NCBI GenBank assembly: GCA_036523455.1
Contig: DATDED010000243.1
Location: 1 to 61,133 of the forward strand
From: Gemmatimonadales bacterium
GTDB taxonomy: Bacteria; Gemmatimonadota; Gemmatimonadetes; Gemmatimonadales; GWC2-71-9
DNA length: 61,133 bases
Direction: 5' to 3'
In this document: positions 6,609 through 28,402 of the stretch, piece after piece
Position numbering within the stretch: the stretch's first letter is position 1
Layout: each line of letters opens with the position of its first letter
Made by a program: the position numbers and the translations under genes
The notes under the pieces: model-generated
Database searches by the model: none
Told to the model about the DNA's origin: nothing
The model's input: only the letters and a program-made list of their open reading frames with translations

Positions 6609-7436
6609 CTACCGCTGACAGAAGGCGCAGAGGGTGGTCTGGCGCAGGTCGATGGCGTGGGTAGTCACGAGCCGCCGGCCGCAGCGAACGCACGGCTCGC
6701 CCCCGCGGTCGTAGACCTTGAGCTCCAGCTGGAAGTTGCCCGATGCTCCGGTACCGGTGCGATAGTCCCGCACGGTGGTCCCCGACGCCCGCAGGGCGCG
6801 TTGCAGGATCTCGACGATGGCGCCGTGCAGTGTCTCGACCTCCGCGGTGGTGAGGCGGTTGGCCGGGCGGGAGGGATCGATGCGCGCGTCGAACAGCGCC
6901 TCGTTGGCGTAGATGTTGCCGACGCCGGCGAGGCGCCGCTGATCCATGATGGCCTTCTTCACCGCGGCGCGCGTGCCGGCGAATGCCCTGGCCAGCACGC
7001 CAGGCGTGAATCCGGGCTCGAGCGGCTCGGGTCCGAGCCGGGCGGTGTAGGCGTTCCAGCCGCGCTCGTCGAGCAGCCACACGGTGCCGAGGCGGCGCAC
7101 GTCGCGGTACACGAACAGGCCGCCGCCGGCCAGGGAGCAGGTCAGCACCGCATAGCGGGCTTCATCGGGGGTGAGCGGCCGGTCGTAGACGATCAGGGAC
7201 CCCGTCATCCGGGGCTGGACGATCATGCGGTGGCCGCTCTGCAGCAGGAAGACGGCGTGTTTCGCCCGGCGCGAGGCCGACCGCACGGTGTTGCCGGTGA
7301 GGGTGCGCACCAGTCGCGGGCGGGACACCCCGCGCAACACGTCGGTCTTGGTCAGCCGGGCAGAACGGATGCGACGCCCCACGAGCCGCGGCGCCACGTC
7401 GCGGACGATCGTCTCGACTTCAGGCAGCTCCGGCAC
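6609..7436 (-). CDS. mutM: Formamidopyrimidine-DNA glycosylase
   Basis: Fpg needs an N-terminal Pro after Met removal. The GTG at 7436 gives [13 protein letters not shown]..., and the C-terminal zinc finger CVRCGRRLVTTHAIDLRQTTLCAFCQR is present. The longer ORF-track start at 7613 adds an Arg-rich extension overlapping purD and was rejected. Confidence 0.9.
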   Translation of the reverse strand: MPELPEVETIVRDVAPRLVGRRIRSARLTKTDVLRGVSRPRLVRTLTGNTVRSASRRAKHAVFLLQSGHRMIVQPRMTGSLIVYDRPLTPDEARYAVLTCSLAGGGLFVYRDVRRLGTVWLLDERGWNAYTARLGPEPLEPGFTPGVLARAFAGTRAAVKKAIMDQRRLAGVGNIYANEALFDARIDPSRPANRLTTAEVETLHGAIVEILQRALRASGTTVRDYRTGTGASGNFQLELKVYDRGGEPCVRCGRRLVTTHAIDLRQTTLCAFCQR

Positions 7437-8715
7437 GATCCCGGCTCCGATCGATCTCCCGCCGCGCGATGTCGCCGCGCCACGTCTTGCCGTCGAACGT
7501 GATCCGCTCGCACGCCGCCCGGCTGGCCGCCGCGGCCGCGGCGACGGTCGGCGCCAGGGCGGTGACGTTGAGCACCCGGCCCCCCGCGACGCGCAGCGCT
7601 CCGCCCGCATCACGGGTGGTTCCCGCGTGGAACAGCAGCACGTCGGGCGGGAGGGCGGGTATGTCGATGACGGCGCCCTTCTCCGGACGGTCGGGATAGC
7701 CGCGCGCGGCGAGCACCGTCGTCACCGCCGCGCGGTTCGCCGTGAGCACGGTGGATTCGGGTCGCCAGGTGCCGGCGGCGATGGCGGCGAGGTGCGCGGT
7801 GGAGCCGCGCGGCAGGACCGGAAGCAGGACCTGCGTCTCCGGATCGCCGAAGCGGCAGTTGAACTCGAGCACCCACGGCGTGCCGTCGGCGCCGATCATC
7901 AGTCCCGCATACAGCACGCCGCTGTAGCGGCAGCCGCGCCGCGCCAGCTCCGCCAGGGTCGGTACCAGCACCTCACGCCGCACCCGCTCCAGCAAGGCGG
8001 GGGTGGCGAGGCTCACCGGGCAGTAGGCGCCCATACCCCCAGTGTTGGGACCCGTGTCGCCCTCTCCCAATCGTTTGTGGTCCTGCGCACCCGGCAGGAT
8101 CAGGAGCCGCTCGCCGTCGGTGAGGGCCAGGACCGAAAGCTCCTCACCCTCGAGGAACGTCTCGACGACGATTTCTCGGCCCGCCTCCCCGAGGATGCCG
8201 GACTCGAGCAGGTCGCGGGCGACGACAGCGGCTTCGCTCCGCGTCGCGCACACCACCGCGCCCTTGCCGGCCGCGAGCCCGGAGGCTTTGACGACCAGAG
8301 GCTCGGCGTGGCGCTCGATGTGCGCCAGGGCGGGACCGACCTCGGTGAACGCGCGACTCGCGGCGGTCGTCACGCCGGCGCTGGCCATCACGTCTTTCGC
8401 AAAGGACTTGGAGGACTCGATCCGGGCGGCCGCCGCGGTGGGGCCGAAGGCGGAATGTCCCGCTGTCCGCAGGCGGTCGACCAGGCCCGCGGCGAGCGGC
8501 GCCTCGGGACCGACCACGACGAGGTCGATGCGGTGATCGCGAGCGGCCGCGACGAGGCCGTCCAGGTCGGTGGCGGCGACGGCGAGATTGGTGGCGAGTC
8601 CGGCGGTGCCGGGGTTGCCGGGAGCGGCAAACAGGGTCGTCGAGGGGTCGTCCGCGTTCAGCGCCCAGCAGAGGGCGTGCTCGCGGCCGCCCCCTCCGAC
8701 GACCAGTACCCTCAC
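7420..8715 (-). CDS. purD: Phosphoribosylamine--glycine ligase
   Basis: The GTG at 8715 gives [19 protein letters not shown]..., the canonical PurD N-terminus, and forms a GTGA overlap with the upstream stop (8712-8714). The 151-aa upstream extension in the ORF track is Arg/Gly junk. Confidence 0.9.
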
Positions 8716-10996: not shown

Positions 10997-12070
10997 GTGA
11001 TGACGGGCCGAAACGGGCTTTCCTGCATCGTGGTGGATGACGAACCGCGGCTGCGACGCGTGATCGCCCACCTGCTCGAGGGTGACGGGTTCCGCGTGCG
11101 CGAGGCCGGTACCGGGGTCGAGGCGTTGCGGGAGATGGAGATGGAGCCCGCGCCCCTCGTGATCTCCGATCTCCGCATGCCGGAAATGGACGGCGCCACG
11201 CTGCTGCCCCACCTCCTCAAGCGCTGGCCCGACACGGCGGTCGTGATGGTCAGCGCCGTCGCCGACGTGGACACCGCCGTCAAATGCCTCAAGCTTGGCG
11301 CGCTCGACTACGTCAGCAAGCCGTTCAACCTGGGCGAGGTGCGCGCCCGGGTGGACCAGGCGCTGCAGCGCCGCCAGCTGCGGTTGGAGCTGCAGGGCTA
11401 CCGGGCGGAGCTCGAGGCGCGGGTGCACGCGCAGGAGCGGCGCATCAAGGAGCTGTTCCTCGACCGGGTCGAGGCGCTCGCCCAGGCGCTCGAAGAGAAG
11501 GACGCCTACCTGCGCGGCCACTCGCTGCGCGTCGCGGAGTACGCGGTGCAGACGGCCCGGCGGCTCGGGTTCGATGAAGAGACGATCGACACCGTCCGGC
11601 TGGGCGCGCGGCTCCACGACCTCGGCAAGATCGGCGTGAGCGAGGAGATCCTGCACAAGCCGGCGAAGCTGACCCCCGAGGAGTACCGCCACATCATGGA
11701 GCACACGGTGATCGGCGCGCGCGTTCTCGGACCGTTGCTGCGGGACCGTCCCGGCGCCATCGCGATCGTGCGCTCGCATCACGAGCGCGTGGACGGCAAG
11801 GGGCTGCCGGACGGCCTGCAGGGAGACGCCATCCCGGCGATCGTCCGGATCGTCTCGGTGGCGGATGCGTTCGACGCGATGACGAGCGAGCGGACCTACC
11901 GGCATTCGCTGCCGGTCGAGGAGGCCCTGAACGAGCTGCGCCGGCAGCGGGGGGTCCAGTGGGATGCCACGGCTGTGGACGGGTTCCTGGACGCCTTCCC
12001 CGACATCCATCACCTCCCCATTCCCACCCCCGACCTGTCCGCCGGACGCGCTCCCCAGCCCGTCGGTTGA
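10997..12070 (+). CDS. Response regulator with HD-GYP-type phosphodiesterase domain (GYP is GLP here)
   Basis: The receiver has VVDDEP and ISDLRMPEMDG. The HD domain has HDLGKIG and HHERVDGKGLPDG. Confidence 0.8.
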   Translation: MMTGRNGLSCIVVDDEPRLRRVIAHLLEGDGFRVREAGTGVEALREMEMEPAPLVISDLRMPEMDGATLLPHLLKRWPDTAVVMVSAVADVDTAVKCLKLGALDYVSKPFNLGEVRARVDQALQRRQLRLELQGYRAELEARVHAQERRIKELFLDRVEALAQALEEKDAYLRGHSLRVAEYAVQTARRLGFDEETIDTVRLGARLHDLGKIGVSEEILHKPAKLTPEEYRHIMEHTVIGARVLGPLLRDRPGAIAIVRSHHERVDGKGLPDGLQGDAIPAIVRIVSVADAFDAMTSERTYRHSLPVEEALNELRRQRGVQWDATAVDGFLDAFPDIHHLPIPTPDLSAGRAPQPVG

Positions 12071-16770: not shown

Positions 16771-17366
16771 CGGACGTGCCGCCGGCGGATTCTCCCATCG
16801 TGCTGGCGAGCTCGAGCCCGCGGCGGCGCCAGCTGCTCGAGATGTTGCGTATTCCATTCGAGGTCGAGCCCTCGGGCATCGATGAAGTGGTGCACCCGGG
16901 CGAGGCGCCGCGCGACTACGTCCTGCGGGTGGCGCGGGAGAAGGGGGAGGCCGTGGCCCGGCGGCGCCCCGGCGCGCTCGTCCTCGCGGCCGACACCGAG
17001 GTCGTGCTGGACGGCGAGGTGTTCGGTAAGCCGGCGGATCCGGCCGGCGCGGTGGGGATGCTGCTGCGGCTCCAGGGCCGGACCCATCAGGTCCTCACCG
17101 GGGTGACGGTCACCCTTGGCGGACGGTTGGAGCAGGCGCTCGATGTTACCGCCGTCACGTTCCGGCCCGCCGACGAGGCGGCGCTGTGCGACTATGTCGC
17201 GACGGGAGAGCCGCTCGACAAGGCGGGGGCGTACGCGGTGCAGGGGCTGGGCGGCGCCCTGATCGCCCGCATCGAGGGTGATGTCTTCGGGGTGATGGGG
17301 CTGCCGCTGCGGCTGGTGATCGACCTGCTGGCGAAGTTCGGGCGGCCCTACCGTTTCACGCGGTAG
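16767..17366 (+). CDS. maf: Maf-family nucleoside triphosphate pyrophosphatase
   Basis: GTG 16767 forms a GTGA overlap with the cytochrome stop and is in frame with ORF 15990..17366. The product has ASSSPRRRQLL, ADTEV and AGAYAVQG. An alternative GTG start lies at 16776. Confidence 0.85.
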   Translation: MTDVPPADSPIVLASSSPRRRQLLEMLRIPFEVEPSGIDEVVHPGEAPRDYVLRVAREKGEAVARRRPGALVLAADTEVVLDGEVFGKPADPAGAVGMLLRLQGRTHQVLTGVTVTLGGRLEQALDVTAVTFRPADEAALCDYVATGEPLDKAGAYAVQGLGGALIARIEGDVFGVMGLPLRLVIDLLAKFGRPYRFTR

Positions 17367-18976
17367 ACCGGCACCGGCTTCGTCTTCCCCTTCACCTGCA
17401 TCGGTTCCAGGGCTTCGACCGCCGGGGGGTTCTTCAGCGCCTTGTAGAACGGCTCGGCGATGAGGATCTCGTTGGCACCGGCGACCGAGCAGAGCCGGCT
17501 GGCGGTGTTCACGGCGTCGCCGATCACGGTGTACTCGAGGCGCCGGTCGGAGCCGAAGTTGCCGGCGAACACTTCGCCGAAGTTGATGCCGACGCCGATC
17601 TTGATCGGCGGGCGGCCCTGTTCCTTCCACTTGGCGTTCATCTTCTCGAGCGCGTTGAGCTGGTCGATCGCGCACTGCATGGCGCGGTCGGCGTCGTCCT
17701 CATGGGCGATCGGCGCGCCCCACAGCGCCATGATGGCGTCGCCCATGAATTTGTCGAGCGAGCCCGAGTGCTCGAACACGATCTCCACCATCTCGGTGAA
17801 GTATTCGGTCAGGAGGTGAGCCACCTCGTCCGGATTCATGTTCTCGGACATCGGGGTGAAGCCGCGGATGTCGGAGAAGAAGATCACGACCGGCCGCTTG
17901 TCCCCGCCCAGGGTGACGGCGCCTTCCTGCTGGGCGATCTGGGCCGCGACGTTGGGAGCGAAATAGCGCTGGAAGTTCGACAACACCATCGCTTCGCGGC
18001 GGATGCGCTCGGAGAGCTGGGAGTTCTCCACGGCCGTGGTGACGATGTTGCCGAAGGCGATGAGGAACTCCAGGTCTTCGTCGGTGAACGAGTGGATCGC
18101 GGTCTGGTTGTCGACGTAGATGATGCCCAGGGCCTGCTGGTCGGAGCCAAGCAGCGGTGTGCACATCGCGCTGCGCACGCTCTGAATGAGGATCGACTTG
18201 CCCTTGAAACGGTCGTCGGCGGCGGCGTTGTCGGAGAGAATCGCGACGCGGTCCTCCACGGCTTTCCGCGCGATCGACTGCGGGACGAGCTTGGCGGCGT
18301 TGGTGTCGCCGGTGCGGCTGCGGGAGACCTTGGGGACCAGCTCCTTGGTCCGGGGGTCGAGCAGCAGGATCGATACCCGGTCCACGTTCATGATCTGGAA
18401 CGTGACGTCCACCACCTTGTGCAGCAGCTGATCCAGCTCCTGCTGGCGCGAGAGCTCCTTGGAGATCTCGAGCAGCAGCTCGAGCTTCTTCTCGCGACGC
18501 TCGGTCTCGTTCTCCGCCTTCACCTTGAGATGCGACGCGCCCACCGCCGCGGGGCCGGTTTCGAGGGCGATCGCCTTCACCCCGCCCGACGAGGGACTGA
18601 CGGGCAGCTGTCGGACGATCGTCCCCTGCGGCATGGCGCGCGACCCGCCGGTCGTGCCCACTTCGGGCGAGGGGGCCGAGGGACGGACGGGCGGCGTGAT
18701 CCCCGCGACCTTGAAGGCGACCTTCCCGAACGTGACGACGTCGTTGGCGCCGGCGTCGGCCTGGGTGATGCGCGCCCCGTTCAGGAACGTGCCGTTCGAG
18801 GAGCCGAGATCCTTCACCCGGACGCCGCCGGCGACGAGGGTGATCTCGGCGTGGCGGCGGGAGATGGTGGGATCGTAGATGGGCACGTCGCTGGTGACGG
18901 CCCGGCCGACGACCAGCGTGCGGCCCGGCGCGAGCTCGATCGACTGGTCGCCGGAAGTGCTCAGCAGCTTGAACAC
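17348..18976 (-). CDS. FHA - GAF - class III adenylate/guanylate cyclase
   Basis: The FHA domain has GRAVTSDVPIYDPTISRRHAEI...GSSNGTFLNG. A central GAF-like region follows. The cyclase core has FFSDIRGFT and GDAIMALWGAP. Confidence 0.85.
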   Translation of the reverse strand: MFKLLSTSGDQSIELAPGRTLVVGRAVTSDVPIYDPTISRRHAEITLVAGGVRVKDLGSSNGTFLNGARITQADAGANDVVTFGKVAFKVAGITPPVRPSAPSPEVGTTGGSRAMPQGTIVRQLPVSPSSGGVKAIALETGPAAVGASHLKVKAENETERREKKLELLLEISKELSRQQELDQLLHKVVDVTFQIMNVDRVSILLLDPRTKELVPKVSRSRTGDTNAAKLVPQSIARKAVEDRVAILSDNAAADDRFKGKSILIQSVRSAMCTPLLGSDQQALGIIYVDNQTAIHSFTDEDLEFLIAFGNIVTTAVENSQLSERIRREAMVLSNFQRYFAPNVAAQIAQQEGAVTLGGDKRPVVIFFSDIRGFTPMSENMNPDEVAHLLTEYFTEMVEIVFEHSGSLDKFMGDAIMALWGAPIAHEDDADRAMQCAIDQLNALEKMNAKWKEQGRPPIKIGVGINFGEVFAGNFGSDRRLEYTVIGDAVNTASRLCSVAGANEILIAEPFYKALKNPPAVEALEPMQVKGKTKPVPVYRVKR

Positions 18977-20515: not shown

Positions 20516-21171
20516 TTCGGGGCGGCGAGCAGGTGGGTGCCGGGTCCTTCGATGGCGCTGCTGACGGTCGACGGCCCCGTGAGGGTGCTGTTGCGGCCCA
20601 GGAACCAGTGGTCCGGGGTGCGCTCGTGCCACACCCCCAGCGCTTGAATGAAGGCGGACGTCGAAGCGTACTTGGAACTCTGGGTGTATACGGACGGGTC
20701 CCCGTAGCTCCCGAACGACACGTCGACGATGGGCTCGTTCGACTGGTTGAATACCAATCCGGCCGGGCTGATGGTGAACTCGTAGCTGCCGGGTGATACC
20801 GTGAGGGTCAGCACGATCGTGGACGTATCGGCCAGCAACGTGTCGTTGCGCGAGACGACGCTATGGGGGAAGAACGTGAAGGCGGCGAACACCGTGTGGA
20901 CGCTGTCGGAGTGCGTGATCGCACAATGACTGAGCAGATTGTTCTTGAAGCTGCAAAGCGTGCCACTGGGCTCGGCCGCCGTGTCCCGGCCGATGGCGAG
21001 GAGCGCGGCGCGGGTCACCCCCTGGGACGGCCCGGTGCCGTTGCCGCCGCACGCGACGGCGAAGACGGTCGCGCTTGCCGCGCACAGGAGCCGGCGGGTA
21101 AGTTGGCGCCCGTGCGATTGCTGTCCGCGCTGGTCCTCGCCGTGATGCTCCCTGCCGGGGCGCGGGCGCAA
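20512..21171 (-). CDS. Hypothetical lipoprotein (start uncertain)
   Basis: The product has a lipobox-like ...LLCAASATVFAVAC-GG and a non-biased Ser/Thr-rich body. The region is visibly more A/T-rich than its flanks. Candidate starts are TTG 21171 or ATG 21276. Both overlap the divergent gene that starts at 21103. Confidence 0.5.
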   Translation of the reverse strand: MRPRPGREHHGEDQRGQQSHGRQLTRRLLCAASATVFAVACGGNGTGPSQGVTRAALLAIGRDTAAEPSGTLCSFKNNLLSHCAITHSDSVHTVFAAFTFFPHSVVSRNDTLLADTSTIVLTLTVSPGSYEFTISPAGLVFNQSNEPIVDVSFGSYGDPSVYTQSSKYASTSAFIQALGVWHERTPDHWFLGRNSTLTGPSTVSSAIEGPGTHLLAAPK

Positions 21172-23145
21172 CGGTGGAACACGCCCGAGGCCCTCGCGCT
21201 CGCCGATCGCGCCATCGCGCGGCGGGCAGGCTCGGCCGCCGACACGTCGCTGCACGATTATCGGGCTCGGGCGCATGGATTCCTATTCTTCCTCGGCGCG
21301 TTCGGAGAAGACCTCGACCAGCCCCCGCGTCTGATCAAGGCGGACCAGCTCGAGTTGGAAGTGTACTGGAAAGCCCCGGGCGCGAGCAAGCAGCGCATCA
21401 TCGGGTGGCGCGATCGCGCTGAGCTTCCCACCGACATCGTCTACCATCAGGATCACCTCGGCATCGTGCAGAACGGGTTTGGCCGCACCATCCGGCTGGG
21501 CGAGGGCGACGAGGTGCGCGACGTGCCGCATCCGCTGGCGCCCGGCGGTCCGGTGCTGTACGACTACGCCGCGGGCGACACGGTCGTCGTCGCCTTGCCG
21601 GAGCGCGAGATCCGCGTCATCGCGCTGCGCTTCCGGCCGCGGGACTTCCAGGCGCCGCGCATCGTCGGCACCGCCTACCTGGACGCCGGCAGCGCCGACC
21701 TCGTGCGCCTGGCGTTCAACTTCACCGCGGTCGCGTACGTGGATCCCACGCTCGAAGACGTGAGCGTCGTGCTCGACAACGCCCTGTATCAGGGCCGCTG
21801 GTGGCTGCCGCGGCATCAGGAAATCGAGATCCGGCGGCGTGCCACGCTGCTCGATCTGCCAGCGCGCGGCATCATCCGCGGGCGCTGGGACGTGGACCGC
21901 TACGACTTCAATACCGGAGTGAGCGCGTCCGTGTTCACCGGACCGGAGATCACCGCGGCTCCCAAGACGGTGCGCGACACCTTCCCCTGGTCCACGTCGC
22001 TGGCCGACGCCGTCCAGGACGTGGCCGAGCCCGTGCGGCGCAACGATCTGGCGGCGGTGCGGGCGCAGGCCACGGCCATCGCCGGGCGGCACGCGCTGTC
22101 GGGCTGGCGCCATCGCGGGCTCGCCGTGCGGGGCTTGAGCGATTTGCTGCACGCCAACCGGGTGCAGGGGGTGGTGCCGGGCGCCGGCCTCGTCTGGCGA
22201 GCCGGAGTGCTCGAGGCGCGGGCCCGCGGAAGCTACGGCTTCGCCGACGGCCGGGTGGATGCCGCACTCGCCGGCCGGCTCGCGGTGGGGCGTCTCGCGC
22301 TCAGCGCCGAGCTGTACCGGGAGGTCCGGGACGTCGCGGACGTGCCGATCGTCGCGCCGATCGTGAACTCGCTCGCGGCCCAGGAACTCGGAGACGACTA
22401 CGGCGACTACGTGCGCGCGACGGGCGGCCGGCTGGGACTCGAGGGCCCCGCGGGGGATCGGGCCCGCTGGCGCGTCACGGCCCGGCGCGAGGCGGTGCGG
22501 AGCCTTGCCGTGCGCGCCGCGCCGGCCACCGGCACCTACCGGGCCAACCCCGCCCTGGGCGGCCCGGCGCTCGATGTCGTCGGCGTCGGCCTCTCCCGCC
22601 CCGGCGAGGGCTTCGCAGTGCGGCGCGACCGCGCGTACGACCTCACGCTCGAGGCGGGCCGCGTGGACGGTGGCGCGACCTACCTGCGTCTCGCGGGCAC
22701 GGGCCTGGTGCTGGTTCCGCTCGGGGCGACGCGCATCCTGGCGCGCGCCCAGGGGGGCATCGCGAGCGCGTCGCTCCCCGCCCATCGCGCGTTCGTGCTC
22801 GGCGGGCGCGGCACGCTGCTGGGTGACGAGTTCCGGGCATGGGGCGGACGCGGCGCGGCGCTGCTGCACCTCGAGTGGCGCGTGCCGGCGCCGTTCCCCA
22901 GTCTGTCGTTGGGATCGGTGGCGCGCACGCCGCGCAGCATCATGCTCGCGCCGTACGCGGCCGCGGGGTGGGCCGGCCGGCCGGTGGCGGCGACGCCGTG
23001 GCGGTCCACCGGTCTGGTGCGCGTGACCGCCGGACTCGCACTCGAGTGGCTGGGCGTGTTCCGGCTCGAGGCTGGGTACGGCGTGCAGAGCCACCGGGCG
23101 CACGTCGCGTTCGACGTCACCAGGGACTTCTGGCGCATCCTCTAG
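21103..23145 (+). CDS. Outer-membrane protein with Omp85/surface-antigen-type C-terminal barrel and an uncharacterised N-terminal half
   Basis: TTG 21103 (or GTG 21112) gives the signal peptide MAPVRLLSALVLAVMLPAGARA-Q. The C-terminus has FVLGGRGTLLGDEFRAWGG...LHLEWRVP and ...FRLEAGYGV, resembling Omp85-family barrels. The upstream part of ORF 20863..23145 was rejected. Confidence 0.6.
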   Translation: MAPVRLLSALVLAVMLPAGARAQRWNTPEALALADRAIARRAGSAADTSLHDYRARAHGFLFFLGAFGEDLDQPPRLIKADQLELEVYWKAPGASKQRIIGWRDRAELPTDIVYHQDHLGIVQNGFGRTIRLGEGDEVRDVPHPLAPGGPVLYDYAAGDTVVVALPEREIRVIALRFRPRDFQAPRIVGTAYLDAGSADLVRLAFNFTAVAYVDPTLEDVSVVLDNALYQGRWWLPRHQEIEIRRRATLLDLPARGIIRGRWDVDRYDFNTGVSASVFTGPEITAAPKTVRDTFPWSTSLADAVQDVAEPVRRNDLAAVRAQATAIAGRHALSGWRHRGLAVRGLSDLLHANRVQGVVPGAGLVWRAGVLEARARGSYGFADGRVDAALAGRLAVGRLALSAELYREVRDVADVPIVAPIVNSLAAQELGDDYGDYVRATGGRLGLEGPAGDRARWRVTARREAVRSLAVRAAPATGTYRANPALGGPALDVVGVGLSRPGEGFAVRRDRAYDLTLEAGRVDGGATYLRLAGTGLVLVPLGATRILARAQGGIASASLPAHRAFVLGGRGTLLGDEFRAWGGRGAALLHLEWRVPAPFPSLSLGSVARTPRSIMLAPYAAAGWAGRPVAATPWRSTGLVRVTAGLALEWLGVFRLEAGYGVQSHRAHVAFDVTRDFWRIL

Positions 23146-23189: not shown

Positions 23190-25433
23190 ATGCCAGACAC
23201 CTTCTTCCCCGACGAGTGGTTGGCCCAATCGCTCGAGGTGCTCACGCCCGAGCGGTTGGCCGAGCTGCGCGCCAAGGCCGAGCCCGGGAAATGGTTGTGG
23301 GAAATGGTGGTAGCCGAGAAACTGGCGACCGACGAAGAGATCCTCGAACACCTTGTCGCCCGCTCGCGGCTGCCCATCGCCGACCTGACGCAGCTCGACC
23401 CCGGCGCCCGGACGGTGCTCCCCGAAGCCCTGGCGCGCCGCTACCGCGTCCTGCCGATCCGGGACACCGACGCCTATCTCGAAATCGCGACGTCTAATCC
23501 GTTCGACCTCGACATGGAGAAGACGCTCGCCTTCGCCACGGCGCGCCAGATCCGCATGTCCCTGCTTTCCCCCGGCAAGATCACGGAGCAGATCGATCAG
23601 CAGTACCGCCCTGAGAAGGCGCTGGACCGGTTGCTGGAGAACATGGGGCAATCGGCGGAACTGGTGCAGCTCGAGGAGGAGGCCCCGGACGAGTACAACA
23701 TCACCGAGGCCGCCGCGAGCGAGCGCCCGGTAGTCAAGCTCGTCGACCTGATTCTGTCCGAGGGCATCCTGTCCCGGGCGAGCGACATCCACATCGAGCC
23801 CGAAGAGGGTGGGGTGGCGGTGCGCTACCGGATCGACGGTGTGCTGCGGCAAGTCATGAAGATCCCGCGGGCCGCGGGACTGCCGCTGATCTCGCGGATC
23901 AAGATCATGTCGTCGCTCGACATCGCCGACCGGCTGCGGCCCCAGGACGGGCGGGCGCGAGTCGCGGTGAACGGACAGCCGATCGATCTCCGGGTCTCCA
24001 CGCTCCCCGCCGCCCACGGCGAAAAGGTCGTCATCCGGATCCTCGATTCCCGCGCGACCGTCAAGTCGCTCGACTCGCTCGGGCTCGACGCCCCGGAGAT
24101 CGAGGCGATCCAGAAGCTGCTGCAATACCACGAGGGGATCATCCTGGTCACCGGCCCCACCGGCTCGGGAAAGACGACCACGCTGTACTCGATGATCAAT
24201 CAGATCAAGAGCGAGGGGGTGAACATCGTCACGGTGGAGGACCCGGTCGAGTACCGGATTCCGGGCATCGTGCAGGTGCAGGTGCAGGAGAAACAGGGGC
24301 TCACCTTCGCCTCGGCGCTGCGGTCGATCCTGCGGCAGGACCCCAACGTGGTACTGGTGGGGGAGATCCGCGACCTCGAGACGGCGCAGATCGCCACGCA
24401 GGCGTCGCTCACCGGGCACCTCGTCCTGTCCACCCTGCACACCAACGACGCGGCGAACGCCGTCACGCGGTTGGTGGACATCGGCGTCGAGCCCTACAAG
24501 ATCGCCGCCGCGTTGCGCGGGGTCATCGCACAGCGCCTGATGCGAAAGCTGTGCAACACCTGCAAGGAGATCTCGCTCGAGCCGCCCCCCGAGGAGCTGA
24601 AGAAGTGGATCCCCTACGGCACGCGGGTATACCGGGCGGCGGGCTGCCCCGACTGCGCCATGACCGGCTACCTCGGCCGCTTCGCCGTGCTCGAGGTGCT
24701 CACCGTCACGCCCGAGGTCGAGCGGCGCATCGCCGCGGGCGAGACGGCGGACCGGATCGCCGACGCGGCGCGTGCGGCGGGGATGCCGACGCTCTTCAGC
24801 AGCGGCGTGAACCGCGTGCTGCGCGGCGAGTCGACCGTCGAGGACCTGCTGCGGGTCGTGGACGTGCCGCGCGAGGACGACCGCCGCCGCTCGCCCGCTC
24901 CTCCGGACCCCCGCAGAGGCGCCGGCGCGACCACGGCCGTCCCCGGCCGGCCCAGCCCCGCCGCCGGCTCGGCGCCGGTCGCCGAGCCGTTCGGTGGGGG
25001 GTTCGAGCTCCTGGAGGAGGCAGGGAGCGGAGCCGGGGCGGCTCGTGGTGGAGCGCCCCGCAAAGTGCTGCTGGTGGACGACGAGGACAGCCTGCGCAAG
25101 GTCCTGAAGGATCTCCTCGAACGGGACGGCTACGACGTGTCGGAGGCGCGGGACGGGGTGCAGGCGCTGGATCAGGTCGACCGCGTGGGACCCGACATCG
25201 TCGTGCTGGATCTCAATCTGCCGGCGCTCGACGGGTACGGCGTGCTGTCGCAGCTGCGTTCGCGGCCGGCGACGGCTGCCATTCCGGTCATCGTGCTCAC
25301 GGCCAAGGGCGACGAGGACAACGAGGTGCGGGTGTTCGAGCTCGGGGCCGACGATTTCCTGCAGAAGCCGTTCCGGGCGCGCGCCCTGTCGGCCCGCCTC
25401 GAGGCCGTGCTCGGCCGGCGCAAGCCGGCGTGA
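23190..25433 (+). CDS. PilB/GspE-family secretion ATPase fused to a C-terminal response-regulator receiver domain
   Basis: ATG 23190 gives MPDTFFPDEW.... The product has a T2SSE N-domain (LPEALARRYRVLPI), Walker A (GPTGSGKTTT), a tetracysteine motif (CNTC...CPDC) and a Pro/Gly/Ala linker. A receiver domain follows (KVLLVDDEDS...VVLDLNLPALDG...LTAKG...KPF). Confidence 0.85.
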   Translation: MPDTFFPDEWLAQSLEVLTPERLAELRAKAEPGKWLWEMVVAEKLATDEEILEHLVARSRLPIADLTQLDPGARTVLPEALARRYRVLPIRDTDAYLEIATSNPFDLDMEKTLAFATARQIRMSLLSPGKITEQIDQQYRPEKALDRLLENMGQSAELVQLEEEAPDEYNITEAAASERPVVKLVDLILSEGILSRASDIHIEPEEGGVAVRYRIDGVLRQVMKIPRAAGLPLISRIKIMSSLDIADRLRPQDGRARVAVNGQPIDLRVSTLPAAHGEKVVIRILDSRATVKSLDSLGLDAPEIEAIQKLLQYHEGIILVTGPTGSGKTTTLYSMINQIKSEGVNIVTVEDPVEYRIPGIVQVQVQEKQGLTFASALRSILRQDPNVVLVGEIRDLETAQIATQASLTGHLVLSTLHTNDAANAVTRLVDIGVEPYKIAAALRGVIAQRLMRKLCNTCKEISLEPPPEELKKWIPYGTRVYRAAGCPDCAMTGYLGRFAVLEVLTVTPEVERRIAAGETADRIADAARAAGMPTLFSSGVNRVLRGESTVEDLLRVVDVPREDDRRRSPAPPDPRRGAGATTAVPGRPSPAAGSAPVAEPFGGGFELLEEAGSGAGAARGGAPRKVLLVDDEDSLRKVLKDLLERDGYDVSEARDGVQALDQVDRVGPDIVVLDLNLPALDGYGVLSQLRSRPATAAIPVIVLTAKGDEDNEVRVFELGADDFLQKPFRARALSARLEAVLGRRKPA

Positions 25434-25897
25434 CCGCGATCCGCGTCTGTTTCGTCGATACCTTCGTGCTGCGGCGAGGCGGAGGGGAGTGGGAGGTGCT
25501 CGTGCTGCGCCGTTCGGCGCGCGGGCGCAACCCGGGGTCGTGGGAAACCGTGCACGGTACCATCGAGCCGGGCGAAACGCCGGTGCAGGCCAGCCTGCGT
25601 GAGCTGCGCGAGGAGACCGGACTCGCTCCGGAGCGGTTCTACAATCTCAGCCGCATCGAAGGCTTCTATCAGCACCGCACCGACGAGCTCGCGATCATTC
25701 CGGCGTTCGCCGCGGTCGTCGCCGCCGGTGCCGCACCGCGACTGTCCGAGGAGCACGATGCCTTCGTGTGGCTCGCGCCCGACGAAGCCACCCGTCGCTT
25801 TGCCTGGCCGCGGGAGCGGAGAGCACTGGACGACGTTTTGTCAATAGTGGGGGCGGAGGGTGGGGGGTTGCTGGACGACGTGCTGCGGGTATCCTAG
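25430..25897 (+). CDS. NUDIX hydrolase
   Basis: GTG 25430 forms a GTGA overlap with the ATPase stop. The Nudix box GTIEPGETPVQASLRELREETGL is present. Confidence 0.8.
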   Translation: MTAIRVCFVDTFVLRRGGGEWEVLVLRRSARGRNPGSWETVHGTIEPGETPVQASLRELREETGLAPERFYNLSRIEGFYQHRTDELAIIPAFAAVVAAGAAPRLSEEHDAFVWLAPDEATRRFAWPRERRALDDVLSIVGAEGGGLLDDVLRVS

Positions 25898-25982: not shown

Positions 25983-26369
25983 GTGAATCCGTTCTACCAC
26001 CGCATCTACCGCATCGTTCGCCATATTCCCAAGGGCCGCGTCGCGACCTACGGTGTCGTTGCCCGCCTCGCGGGCCGGCCGGGCGCCGCGCGCACCGTGG
26101 GATGGGCGTTGTCGGCGCTGCCGGAGGACAGCGATGTGCCGTGGTGGCGCGTGATCAACGCGGCCGGACGGATATCGTTGTCGGGCGAGCACAGCGCGGT
26201 GCTGCAACGGGCGCTGCTGCTGCGGGAAGGTCTCAAGTTCGCGCCGGGCGGCGCGGTCAACCTGGGCAGCTTCGGATGGCCGGCGGAAGCCTACGAGACC
26301 GCACCCGCCGCCCAGAGCCGCGCGGCTTCCTCGCGCAGATCCCGCAGGTTGAAGGGCTTCCGCACGTAA
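25983..26369 (+). CDS. Alkyltransferase-like (ATL) protein: MGMT DNA-binding domain with Trp replacing the acceptor Cys
   Basis: The product has IPKGRVATYGVVARLAG and VPWWRVINAAGRIS. A true MGMT has PCHRV and ATL proteins have PWHRV. The last 79 nt overlap the convergent kinase gene. Confidence 0.75.
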   Translation: MNPFYHRIYRIVRHIPKGRVATYGVVARLAGRPGAARTVGWALSALPEDSDVPWWRVINAAGRISLSGEHSAVLQRALLLREGLKFAPGGAVNLGSFGWPAEAYETAPAAQSRAASSRRSRRLKGFRT

Positions 26370-28402
26370 CGCAGGCCGAGGCGCTCCAGCGCCTCTTCGG
26401 TCGCCGGCCGCACGTCTCCCGTCGCCACCAGCGTTCGCGACCGCAGATCCGGGTGCTGCGACAACATCTCCTCGACGAACAGCTTCCCCTTCGCGCTCAC
26501 CTGTGCGTCCACGAGGATCAGGTCGTAGCCGTGGTCGGCCGTGAGCTCGAGCGCGTGCTCGGCGCTCCGCGCCACGTCCACGGTATGCCCCTCGCGCCCG
26601 AACAACGCCTGCACCAGACGCCGCACCGCCGGGTCGTCGTCCACCAGCAGGATCGCGCGCTTGGCGAAGGCCGGCGGCAGCGGCGGCGACGGCTCGGGGC
26701 TCGGTGCCGCCGGGGCGGGACGCTCCGCGGGCGCCGGGGGGAGATCGATGCGGAACGACGCGCCGCCCTGGGGCGCGCGCTCGTAGCTCAAATGGCCGCC
26801 GTGCGACTCGACGATCGAGTAGGAGATCGACAACCCCAGGCCGGTGCCGTGCCCCGGCTCCTTGGTGGTGAAGAACGGGGTGAACAGGTGCCGCTCCAGG
26901 CTGGGCGGAACGCCCGGCCCCGTGTCCGTGACGCGCAGGTGCACGAGCCCGTCGGACCACGTCTCCAGCCGGATGCAGCGCGGGCGATCCTCGGGGAGGT
27001 CCCCCACCGCCTGCGCGGCGTTGGTGAGCAGGTTCAGCACGACCTGCTGCAGCGCGTGGCGGTCGCCGATTACCTCGGGCAGATCGTCGGGGAGCTCGAG
27101 CTGCGTCTCGACGTCGCGCAGCCGCAGGTCGTAGCTCATGAGCAGCAGGGTGCGCTGCAGCAGATCGTTCAGGTCCAGGCGCGAGCGCTCCGCCGGTCCC
27201 TTGCGGGCGAAGGTGAGCAGGTTGCGGACGATGCGGCCCGCCCGTTCCGCCTGCTCGTGGATCACCCGCAGGTGGCCGCGGTCGCCCGTTCCGAGCTCCT
27301 TCTGCTCCAGCAGGAACTCCGACAGGCCGGCGATCGAGGTGAGGGGGTTGTTGAGCTCGTGCGCGACGCCGGAGACGAGCTGTCCGACGGTGGCCAGTTT
27401 CTCGCTCTGGATCAGCTGCGCCTCCATCGCCTGCTGCTCGGTGACGTCCTGCACGAGGACCACCGACGCCTGGTTCTGGGTGGCGCCGGGCATGAGGGCC
27501 GCGTTGATGCGGAAGGTTCGGCCGTTGACCTCGGAGCGCTCGGTCAACGGCGCCGGTCGCTCGCCACGGCGCACGTCGTCCAGCATCTGGGCGAGGGCGT
27601 GCGAGCGGCCCAGCAGGGCGTGGCACAGGTGCGTCCCGATCACCTCGGGCAGGGGGTGGCCCACCATGATCGCCAACGAGCGGTTGGCCCGGCGTACCTG
27701 TCCCGCGTCGTCCACCACCGCGAGCCCTTCGGAGAGGGCATCGAACGTGGTTTCCCACTGCTCCTTGCCGCGCCGCACGAGATCGAAGAACCGTCCATTG
27801 GCGAGCGCGACGGCGGCGTGCGTCGCGACCGTGGACAGGAGGCGCACGTCGTCCGGCGCGAGCGCGCCGCCACGCGGTTCGGCGACCACCAAGGACCCCA
27901 CCACGACCCCATGGGCGCGCAGCGGCACGGCCGCGGCGGACTCGACCGTGGACCCACTGGCGAGCGGCGCGCCGGTCTCGCTGTTGCGGATCAGCTCGAG
28001 TCGTTCGCCCCGGGCCGAGCGGGCCACGAGACCCGGATCATTCGCCGGGACCGTCGTTCCCCGCAGATCGGCCAGCGATCCTTCGGCCGCCGCGATGGTG
28101 AGCGGATCGTCGGGATTCTCCCCGGCCAGCGCCACCAGCGCGCCGCGCGCGTCGATGAAGCGCATGGCGTAGCGCACCACCTGCTCGACGATGCGCTCCA
28201 GCTTGATCGACTCCGAGAGGACGTAGGACAGCTCCTGCAGCCAGAACAACTCCGACAGCCGCCGGTTCAGCTCATCGGCGGTTCGCTGACGGTCGCGCTC
28301 CAGCGCCCGCTGGCGCTGGCGCGCCCGTTGGAAGGCCCAGATGGCCCCGGCACCGGCCGCGCCGGCGAGGGCCAGCCCGAGGGGAAGCGGGATGGATACC
28401 AC
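26291..28402 (-). CDS. Hybrid sensor histidine kinase (TM - GAF - PAS - HisKA - HATPase - receiver)
   Basis: The product has the H-box GVAHELNNPLT, the ATPase segment DTGPGVP...GTGLGLSISY and a C-terminal receiver (ILLVDDDP...LILVD). The start is set at GTG 28402 (MVSIPLPLGLALAGAAGAG... TM helix). The ORF-track start at 28729 adds an Arg/Pro-rich extension. Confidence 0.8.
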   Translation of the reverse strand: MVSIPLPLGLALAGAAGAGAIWAFQRARQRQRALERDRQRTADELNRRLSELFWLQELSYVLSESIKLERIVEQVVRYAMRFIDARGALVALAGENPDDPLTIAAAEGSLADLRGTTVPANDPGLVARSARGERLELIRNSETGAPLASGSTVESAAAVPLRAHGVVVGSLVVAEPRGGALAPDDVRLLSTVATHAAVALANGRFFDLVRRGKEQWETTFDALSEGLAVVDDAGQVRRANRSLAIMVGHPLPEVIGTHLCHALLGRSHALAQMLDDVRRGERPAPLTERSEVNGRTFRINAALMPGATQNQASVVLVQDVTEQQAMEAQLIQSEKLATVGQLVSGVAHELNNPLTSIAGLSEFLLEQKELGTGDRGHLRVIHEQAERAGRIVRNLLTFARKGPAERSRLDLNDLLQRTLLLMSYDLRLRDVETQLELPDDLPEVIGDRHALQQVVLNLLTNAAQAVGDLPEDRPRCIRLETWSDGLVHLRVTDTGPGVPPSLERHLFTPFFTTKEPGHGTGLGLSISYSIVESHGGHLSYERAPQGGASFRIDLPPAPAERPAPAAPSPEPSPPLPPAFAKRAILLVDDDPAVRRLVQALFGREGHTVDVARSAEHALELTADHGYDLILVDAQVSAKGKLFVEEMLSQHPDLRSRTLVATGDVRPATEEALERLGLRYVRKPFNLRDLREEAARLWAAGAVS

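Follow-up and report, generated by a model that had tools for sequence, protein, structure and literature searches.

A PilB-type motor ATPase with a C-terminal receiver domain in Gemmatimonadales: a candidate phosphorylation-gated accessory motor

The window analysed here is a stretch of 61,133 nucleotides (nt) from contig DATDED010000243.1 of the Gemmatimonadales bacterium assembly GCA_036523455.1. One of its genes (positions 23,190 to 25,433) encodes a PilB/GspE-type secretion ATPase that continues through a linker into a CheY-like receiver domain. The gene product is predicted to be a catalytically competent motor ATPase of the PilB type, with a canonical and strongly conserved receiver held on a flexible tether, and it is paralogous and accessory to the canonical PilB of the cell. 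With moderate confidence, it is proposed to be an accessory motor gated by phosphorylation of the tethered receiver. Within this proposal, it is highly probable that the protein is a real phosphorylation-regulated ATPase, while the type IVa pilus machine is only tentatively named as its client.

Architecture and conservation of the receiver-fused ATPase

The gene is a single open reading frame (ORF) whose features are listed in Table 1. Its start codon is backed by orthologues that open with the same MPETxFPDEW sequence, a scan for promoters and terminators gave no signal above chance, and an exact-sequence look-up of the protein matched no record. The match to T2SSE (PF00437) scores 437.8 bits against a Pfam cut-off of 24.9, which places the protein in the T2SSE superfamily, and the receiver match (PF00072) scores 109.5 bits with the response-regulator residue set present. 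The first-pass annotation, made from the letters of the window, had described a full ATPase architecture of type II secretion and type IV pilus systems that runs through a Pro/Gly/Ala-rich linker into a complete receiver. Each part of this description was recovered: MshEN, T2SSE, Walker A and CNTC...CPDC by Pfam and motif searches, and VDDED, DLNLP, TAKG and KPF within the receiver. The ATPase core holds the Walker A motif, the Asp box, the Walker B Glu, the His box and the two Arg of the N2 motif RLRPQDGR. The N1/MshEN domain and the tetracysteine zinc site, two features of extension-type ATPases that are absent from PilT, are both present.

Table 1. Features of the receiver-fused ATPase gene and of its neighbours, in positions of the window
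Feature	Position	Strand	Basis
Whole gene, PilB/GspE-type ATPase with C-terminal receiver, 747 amino acids (aa)	23190..25433	+	Single stop-free ORF; Pfam; orthologues with the same three domains
N1/MshEN domain, residues 60-144	23367..23621	+	Pfam PF05157, E 6e-15; lacks the cyclic di-GMP (c-di-GMP)-binding RLGxxLVxxGLI...Q motif
T2SSE ATPase core (N2 and C-terminal domain, CTD), residues 176-555	23715..24854	+	Pfam E 3e-131; Walker A, Asp box, Walker B, His box
Walker A GPTGSGKTTT, residues 322-331	24153..24182	+	Sequence motif
Tetracysteine zinc motif, CNTC (455-458) ... CPDC (486-489)	24552..24656	+	140-141 of 141 orthologues
Ala/Gly/Pro-rich disordered linker, 67 aa, residues 557-623	24858..25058	+	Predicted local distance difference test (pLDDT) below 50 over 563-620
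Receiver (REC) domain, residues 624-742	25059..25415	+	Pfam Response_reg 626-737, E 1e-31
Receiver residues: acidic pair D630/D631, phospho-acceptor D674 (predicted), T704, F723, K726		+	Orthologue alignment
Codon of predicted phospho-acceptor Asp674	25209..25211	+	Orthologue alignment
Predicted outer-membrane protein, 680 aa, signal peptide	21103..23145	+	44 nt upstream of the ATPase gene
NUDIX hydrolase, 155 aa, intact NUDIX box	25430..25897	+	Overlap of its GTG start codon with the stop codon of the ATPase gene (GTGA)
Alkyltransferase-like (MGMT DNA-binding domain) protein, 128 aa	25983..26369	+	Synteny neighbour only
GAF-PAS-HisKA-HATPase_c-REC hybrid histidine kinase, convergent	26291..28402	-	Candidate kinase for the receiver
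FHA-GAF-class III nucleotide cyclase	17348..18976	-	Conserved synteny neighbour of the ATPase across three families

An AlphaFold2 model of the window protein was built from an alignment of 93 sequences. The folds of N1, N2, the CTD and the receiver are confident (pLDDT about 90), residues 563-620 are disordered, and the receiver is modelled at the same confidence as a (beta-alpha)5 fold. The modelled core superposes on Thermus PilF and Geobacter PilB (5IT5, 5TSH, 5OIU) with template modelling (TM) scores of 0.92-0.94 and a root-mean-square deviation of about 2 Å, and it also superposes on GspE.

The same three domains are found in full length in more than 120 orthologue clusters at 75-98% identity, which carry the label Gemmatimonadales and were retrieved by a word-indexed search from JGI, NCBI, ENA and Logan assemblies, with contigs as long as 470 kb. 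Among species genomes of the phylum, about 100 of 200 hold a full-length match (from residue 1 or 6, approximately, to 745). These matches cover all three families of the order to which the window belongs, and other orders and classes yield matches at the level of PilB only. The conservation of single residues was scored over 141 orthologues, all of which keep Walker A and B, the Asp and His boxes and both Arg of RLRPQDGR. Receiver residues D631, D674 and K726 are likewise invariant, and D630 (130 Asp, 11 Glu), T704 (138 of 141), F723 (136 of 141) and the fourth Cys of the zinc motif (140 of 141) are nearly so. Mean identity is highest in the receiver (91%), followed by the core (85%) and the linker (42%). 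Direct phosphorelay control of the motor, as suggested in the first-pass annotation, is thus the natural reading of a protein in which every residue predicted for phospho-acceptance is present.

That the fusion might be an artefact, in which a frameshift or an assembly join had merged a PilB gene with a response-regulator gene, has a negligible probability. This reading is rejected because the independent full-length clusters come from four assembly sources and share one architecture; the matches in about 100 species genomes and a linker that varies from 56 to 98 aa among orthologues while preserving the reading frame also speak against it. The fusion described in the first-pass annotation is therefore genuine, and it is conserved as well.

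Within the otherwise variable and disordered linker, a short acidic motif, GFELL[DE][DE], is kept about 20 residues before the receiver. It reads GFELLEE in the window protein and its consensus is roughly hydrophobic-E-L-hydrophobic-D/E-D/E. This segment may be a docking peptide.

An accessory paralogue of PilB and its relatives

The source organism is a soil-type Gemmatimonadales bacterium in which the fused gene is additional to an ordinary pilus motor. Its genome is a metagenome-assembled genome (MAG), 84% complete and distributed over 482 contigs. Chimeric PilB, PilT, PilC, PilO, PilP and PilQ queries, together with PilM, PilD, PilA and minor-pilin queries, matched other contigs of the MAG only and none on the contig of the window (C243), and a regular expression for the prepilin motif matched seven ORFs in the MAG and none on C243. 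With profile searches giving the same picture, the initial statement that no pilus or secretion genes lie in the window stands. Elsewhere in the MAG, pilO-pilP-pilQ are located at the start of contig C451, which carries the sole secretin of the genome, and two pilT-like genes and the prepilin peptidase gene pilD likewise lie outside the window contig. No T2SSF match was found anywhere in the MAG by profile search. Platform and pilin genes had been expected outside the window; of these, pilOPQ, pilD, pilT and pilins were recovered and the platform was not. The canonical pilB of the MAG is a 179-aa fragment cut by the contig end (G000:C323:1-538, L102). A true absence of PilC and PilB from the MAG was considered and rejected in favour of assembly gaps, given this fragment at the edge of C323.

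The near relatives with at least 90% completeness clarify this picture. All 30 carry PilC, and all 30 combine a canonical pilB (about 575 aa)-pilT-pilC cluster with the fused gene at another locus. Genomes of the same genus have one PilC-type T2SSF platform only, located beside pilB-pilT; an apparent lack of pilBTC in one of them (G003) was rejected as an assembly break, as a pilC fragment stands at the contig end. Since a canonical pilB-pilT-pilC cluster is accompanied by the fused gene elsewhere in the genome, the fused ATPase is an accessory paralogue and not the sole extension ATPase. The term 'orphan' that had been applied to it is therefore apt for the position of the gene and does not extend to the genome, as the lineage has a complete type IVa set with its own PilB.

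The two motors differ in their MshEN domains. The c-di-GMP motif of MshEN occurs in tandem and follows the pattern RLGxx(L/V/I)(L/V/I)xxG(L/V/I)(L/V/I)xxxxLxxxLxxQ (PMC7288161, PMC10333796). In the canonical PilB of relatives, a regular expression found RLGxxLVxxGLIxxxxLxxxLxxQ twice, and the PilB fragment of the MAG itself shows the tandem pair in a slightly relaxed form, with the first copy beginning KLG. The motif was found in none of 121 fused orthologues, even with a relaxed pattern, and the fused ATPase does not fall among the MshE-type c-di-GMP receptors. The predicted c-di-GMP-binding motif that canonical PilB has kept is thus lost from the fused protein.

The placement of the ATPase between PilB and GspE was assessed by model scores and phylogeny. 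On the NCBIfam models, it scores 520.7 bits for PilB (TIGR02538, equivalog cut-off 675.65) and 557.7 bits for GspE (TIGR02533, equivalog cut-off 630.25), so that both values lie below the respective cut-offs and the GspE model gives the top score. Among PDB sequences, the scores are near equal, with 387 bits for PilF, 383 for GspE and 381 for PilB. A maximum-likelihood tree was calculated from the N2 and CTD core of 56 Gemmatimonadales sequences. Here, the window orthologues are united with every other receiver-fused paralogue in a single clade, which has a support of 98 in the Shimodaira-Hasegawa-like approximate likelihood ratio test (SH-aLRT) and is distinct both from canonical PilB (100) and from the GspE-like genes that adjoin a GspF (97). 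That a type II secretion system encoded elsewhere uses the fused ATPase as its GspE is very improbable. The top NCBIfam score and the GspE structures among the best matches point that way; against it, the GspE score stays under its cut-off, the only platform of PilC/GspF type in same-genus genomes adjoins pilB-pilT, and the GspE-like genes beside GspF in other genera belong to a separate clade.

Beyond the order, the 150 nearest representatives of 50%-identity clusters were drawn from 1.8 billion proteins and their domains were called with phmmer. They comprise 107 ATPase-REC proteins, one ATPase-REC-REC-REC, three REC-ATPase, three ATPase-NUDIX and 17 tandem ATPases, and one of the ATPase-REC representatives comes from Zixibacteria. 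The fusion is not rare: 108 of the 150 representatives follow the ATPase-REC design, which is therefore common in sequence databases. Automatic pipelines label the family 'PilB-like/CheY-like', while full-text literature searches returned no paper describing the ATPase-receiver fusion. Of the two properties that had initially been held to speak against the claim, an architecture already common and already characterised, the first therefore applies and the second does not: the design is common and is without an experimental study in the literature searched.

One distant representative, P0146, shares 40% identity over residues 6-743 and the same three domains. Directly after its gene, a prepilin peptidase, a T2SSF platform, three N_methyl pilins, a PilM-like protein, PilO and a secretin are encoded. 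By its predicted gene content, this full pilus/secretion-type operon headed by a same-architecture member links the fusion to filaments. The gene of the Zixibacteria member overlaps a pilin-like gene, followed by a PAS-kinase-REC gene and a single REC gene. A locus search with P0146 returned almost only receiver-domain matches.

Several variants of the architecture occur as well. The tandem ATPases (P0128, P0132, P0133, P0135 and others) are about 1000 aa long and hold two T2SSE cores, and some representatives of 1200-1500 aa combine ATPase-REC with long extensions. Within Gemmatimonadales, the receiver-fused paralogues L045, L047 (paralogue 2) and L049 (paralogue 3) lie near aroA-cmk-rpsA. 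The next gene after L045 and L047 is a called 125-aa single-domain receiver, and directly downstream of L049 there is a second receiver-like match at which no gene is called. Pilin-like genes downstream of paralogue 2 were suggested by weak tblastn matches and were rejected on inspection of the reading frames. Another paralogue (L064, G025:C5:447000-450500) has 905 aa, with an ATPase, a receiver and a C-terminal region that appears GAF-like by eye.

Neighbouring genes

The gene order chorismate-binding (- strand), 680-aa outer-membrane protein (+), ATPase (+) and NUDIX (+) is kept across three families. The 680-aa protein has no Pfam match in the window and its orthologue matches DUF5686; against PDB sequences, only a non-significant match to the tail of BamA was found. 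Its gene occurs as a single copy in nearly every genome of the class, also in those that have no fused ATPase, and a role as a dedicated partner was accordingly rejected: the linkage is one of conserved gene order only. Its distribution suggests a core outer-membrane protein.

The NUDIX gene lies directly downstream of the ATPase gene in most loci. In a sister family, seven loci from several genera (L035-L038, L040-L042) carry in-frame ATPase-NUDIX single ORFs of 709-767 aa from which the receiver is lost, and these forms nest inside the receiver-bearing clade of the tree. A further locus, L039, appears frameshifted, and the receiver of L052 is in another frame. The stop/start overlap in the window, the position downstream in most loci and the nested single-ORF fusions could indicate an obligate functional pair, in which the NUDIX protein would degrade or detect a nucleotide by which the motor is controlled. 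This is considered improbable. A NUDIX orthologue persists right after the outer-membrane gene in four ATPase-less genera (L089, L090, L093, L095), four carriers of the ATPase have no adjacent NUDIX (L016, L017, L018, L028) and in three the NUDIX gene is more than 2 kb away, so that the coupling is loose in both directions. In addition, the NUDIX protein matches generic families only, all below cut-off and at best NudB/MutT/NudG-like with 37-43 bits, and the fusions are explicable by deletion of the receiver segment between adjacent genes.

In about 70% of the genomes of the family, a clear orthologue of the convergent hybrid kinase lies next to the ATPase gene. The first-pass annotation had proposed phosphotransfer from this kinase; as a consistent partner it fails, given its absence from many genera that keep the fused gene, and as an obligate partner it was rejected as a general rule. 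Signalling genes are dense around the ATPase, with a REC-HD(-GYP-type) gene at 10,997-12,070 in addition to the cyclase and the hybrid kinase. The 128-aa MGMT-family protein, whose gene overlaps the convergent kinase gene by 79 nt at its 3' end, has PWWRV in the place of the active-site motif, where methyltransferases carry the cysteine of PCHRV. It looks like an alkyltransferase-like (ATL) protein that is predicted to be devoid of the catalytic Cys.

Proposed role and significance

In the proposed mechanism, a two-component kinase would phosphorylate D674, and in part of the family this may be the neighbouring GAF-PAS hybrid kinase. The motor is expected to be hexameric, with one receiver tethered to each subunit by the flexible linker of about 67 aa. 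Phosphorylation of Asp674 would then gate the activity or the recruitment of the motor: the phospho-receiver may bind the motor or the pilus base and thereby switch filament extension on or off. The likeliest client would be the single type IVa platform (PilC, PilMNOPQ) encoded elsewhere, and the same pilus machine would then have one motor that senses c-di-GMP and another that senses phosphorylation.

Known systems offer partial parallels. PilB and PilF of Geobacter (5TSG, 5TSH, 5ZFR), Thermus (5OIU, 5IT5, 6F8L) and Myxococcus (3JC8) share the N1 (MshEN), N2 and CTD domains, Walker A and B, the Asp and His boxes and the tetracysteine zinc site with the fused ATPase, at a core identity of 45-47%. 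The fused ATPase adds the C-terminal receiver on its 67-aa tether and, unlike PilB, has no c-di-GMP MshEN motif, is not encoded with pilT and pilC and belongs to a separate clade. GspE/EpsE (4PHT, 1P9R, 4KSR) has the same zinc motif and a similarity in sequence and fold equal to that of PilB (383 versus 381-387 bits), whereas the genus of the fused ATPase has neither gsp genes nor a second platform protein. In the Tax1 system of Synechocystis, only phosphorylated PixG binds the motor PilB1 (PMC11181946; bioRxiv 10.1101/2021.06.11.447907), so that a phosphorylated receiver acts there on an extension ATPase in trans, as is predicted for the fused protein in cis. PixG is a separate PatA-type protein with input from a CheA-like kinase; the fused receiver, in contrast, is covalently tethered and PhoB/OmpR-like in sequence, and no chemosensory genes lie near the fused ATPase. 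PilG and PilH of the Pil-Chp system are comparable to PixG-PilB1 by analogy. Regulatory input at the extension ATPase itself is also known from MshE-type ATPases and from FimX-PilZ-PilB of Xanthomonas (PMC7288161, PMC10333796), whereas the input of the fused ATPase is predicted to be Asp phosphorylation instead of c-di-GMP.

Several observations weigh against the proposed role at the pilus. The fused gene is lost from several genera that keep PilB and is therefore dispensable, and the single-contig genomes of one related genus do not contain it. In Gemmatimonadales, neither the window orthologues nor the paralogues L044-L049 are located beside pilus genes, and the scores of the ATPase lie under both the PilB and the GspE equivalog cut-offs. 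Several genera and a sister family retain the receiver-fused gene and have no hybrid kinase. Finally, G061, a single related MAG with 99% completeness and 30 contigs, keeps the fused gene with all motifs after a loss of pilus genes. In its pil locus (L100, G061:C14:5000-19000), an IS1-family transposase at about 6778-8547 replaces pilB, pilT and the 5' third of pilC just upstream of pilS-pilR, and chimeric-query searches of the genome did not find pilM, pilO, pilP and pilQ. The retention of the fused gene in this genome could fit a pilus-independent role.

These points raise the alternative that the clade has left filament assembly altogether and forms a phosphorylation-gated hexameric ATPase that serves a non-filament client or a signalling output, in which a receiver and a NUDIX domain are interchangeable at the C-terminal position. 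Its encoding always among housekeeping genes, the lost c-di-GMP motif, the two sub-threshold scores, G061 and the in-frame ATPase-NUDIX fusions are all in line with this alternative, which is regarded as unlikely. On the other side, the protein has kept its N1/MshEN docking domain and zinc motif together with all catalytic residues typical of extension ATPases, distant members with this architecture stand at the head of pilus-type operons, and no neighbour suggests an alternative substrate. G061 is moreover one MAG in which pilD and three pilA-like genes remain, and its fused ATPase looks scrambled over the first 55 codons. The narrower version, in which the receiver-fused hexamers of Gemmatimonadales are no longer pilus motors and are phosphorylation-gated ATPases with another client, is drawn from the retention in G061, the receiver-to-NUDIX swaps and the lack of placement near pilus genes, and is judged unlikely. 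In a milder reading, one pilus machine may have two extension motors as alternatives, of which the first is gated by c-di-GMP and the second by phosphorylation.

The proposal of a phosphorylation-gated accessory motor is of limited practical weight insofar as the family is abundant in databases, annotated by pipelines and missing from the single-contig genomes of one related genus. Its interest lies in the control of the extension motor by response regulators (PilG, PixG, FrzZ-type), which is still being worked out in systems that act in trans. A natural fusion in cis represents a one-protein model with a defined predicted phospho-site (D674) and a defined tether. In addition, the lineage offers a side-by-side contrast between a canonical PilB with c-di-GMP motifs and a fused paralogue without them. 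If both motors serve one machine, they would illustrate in a simple form how two signalling currencies converge via alternative motors on a single nanomachine.

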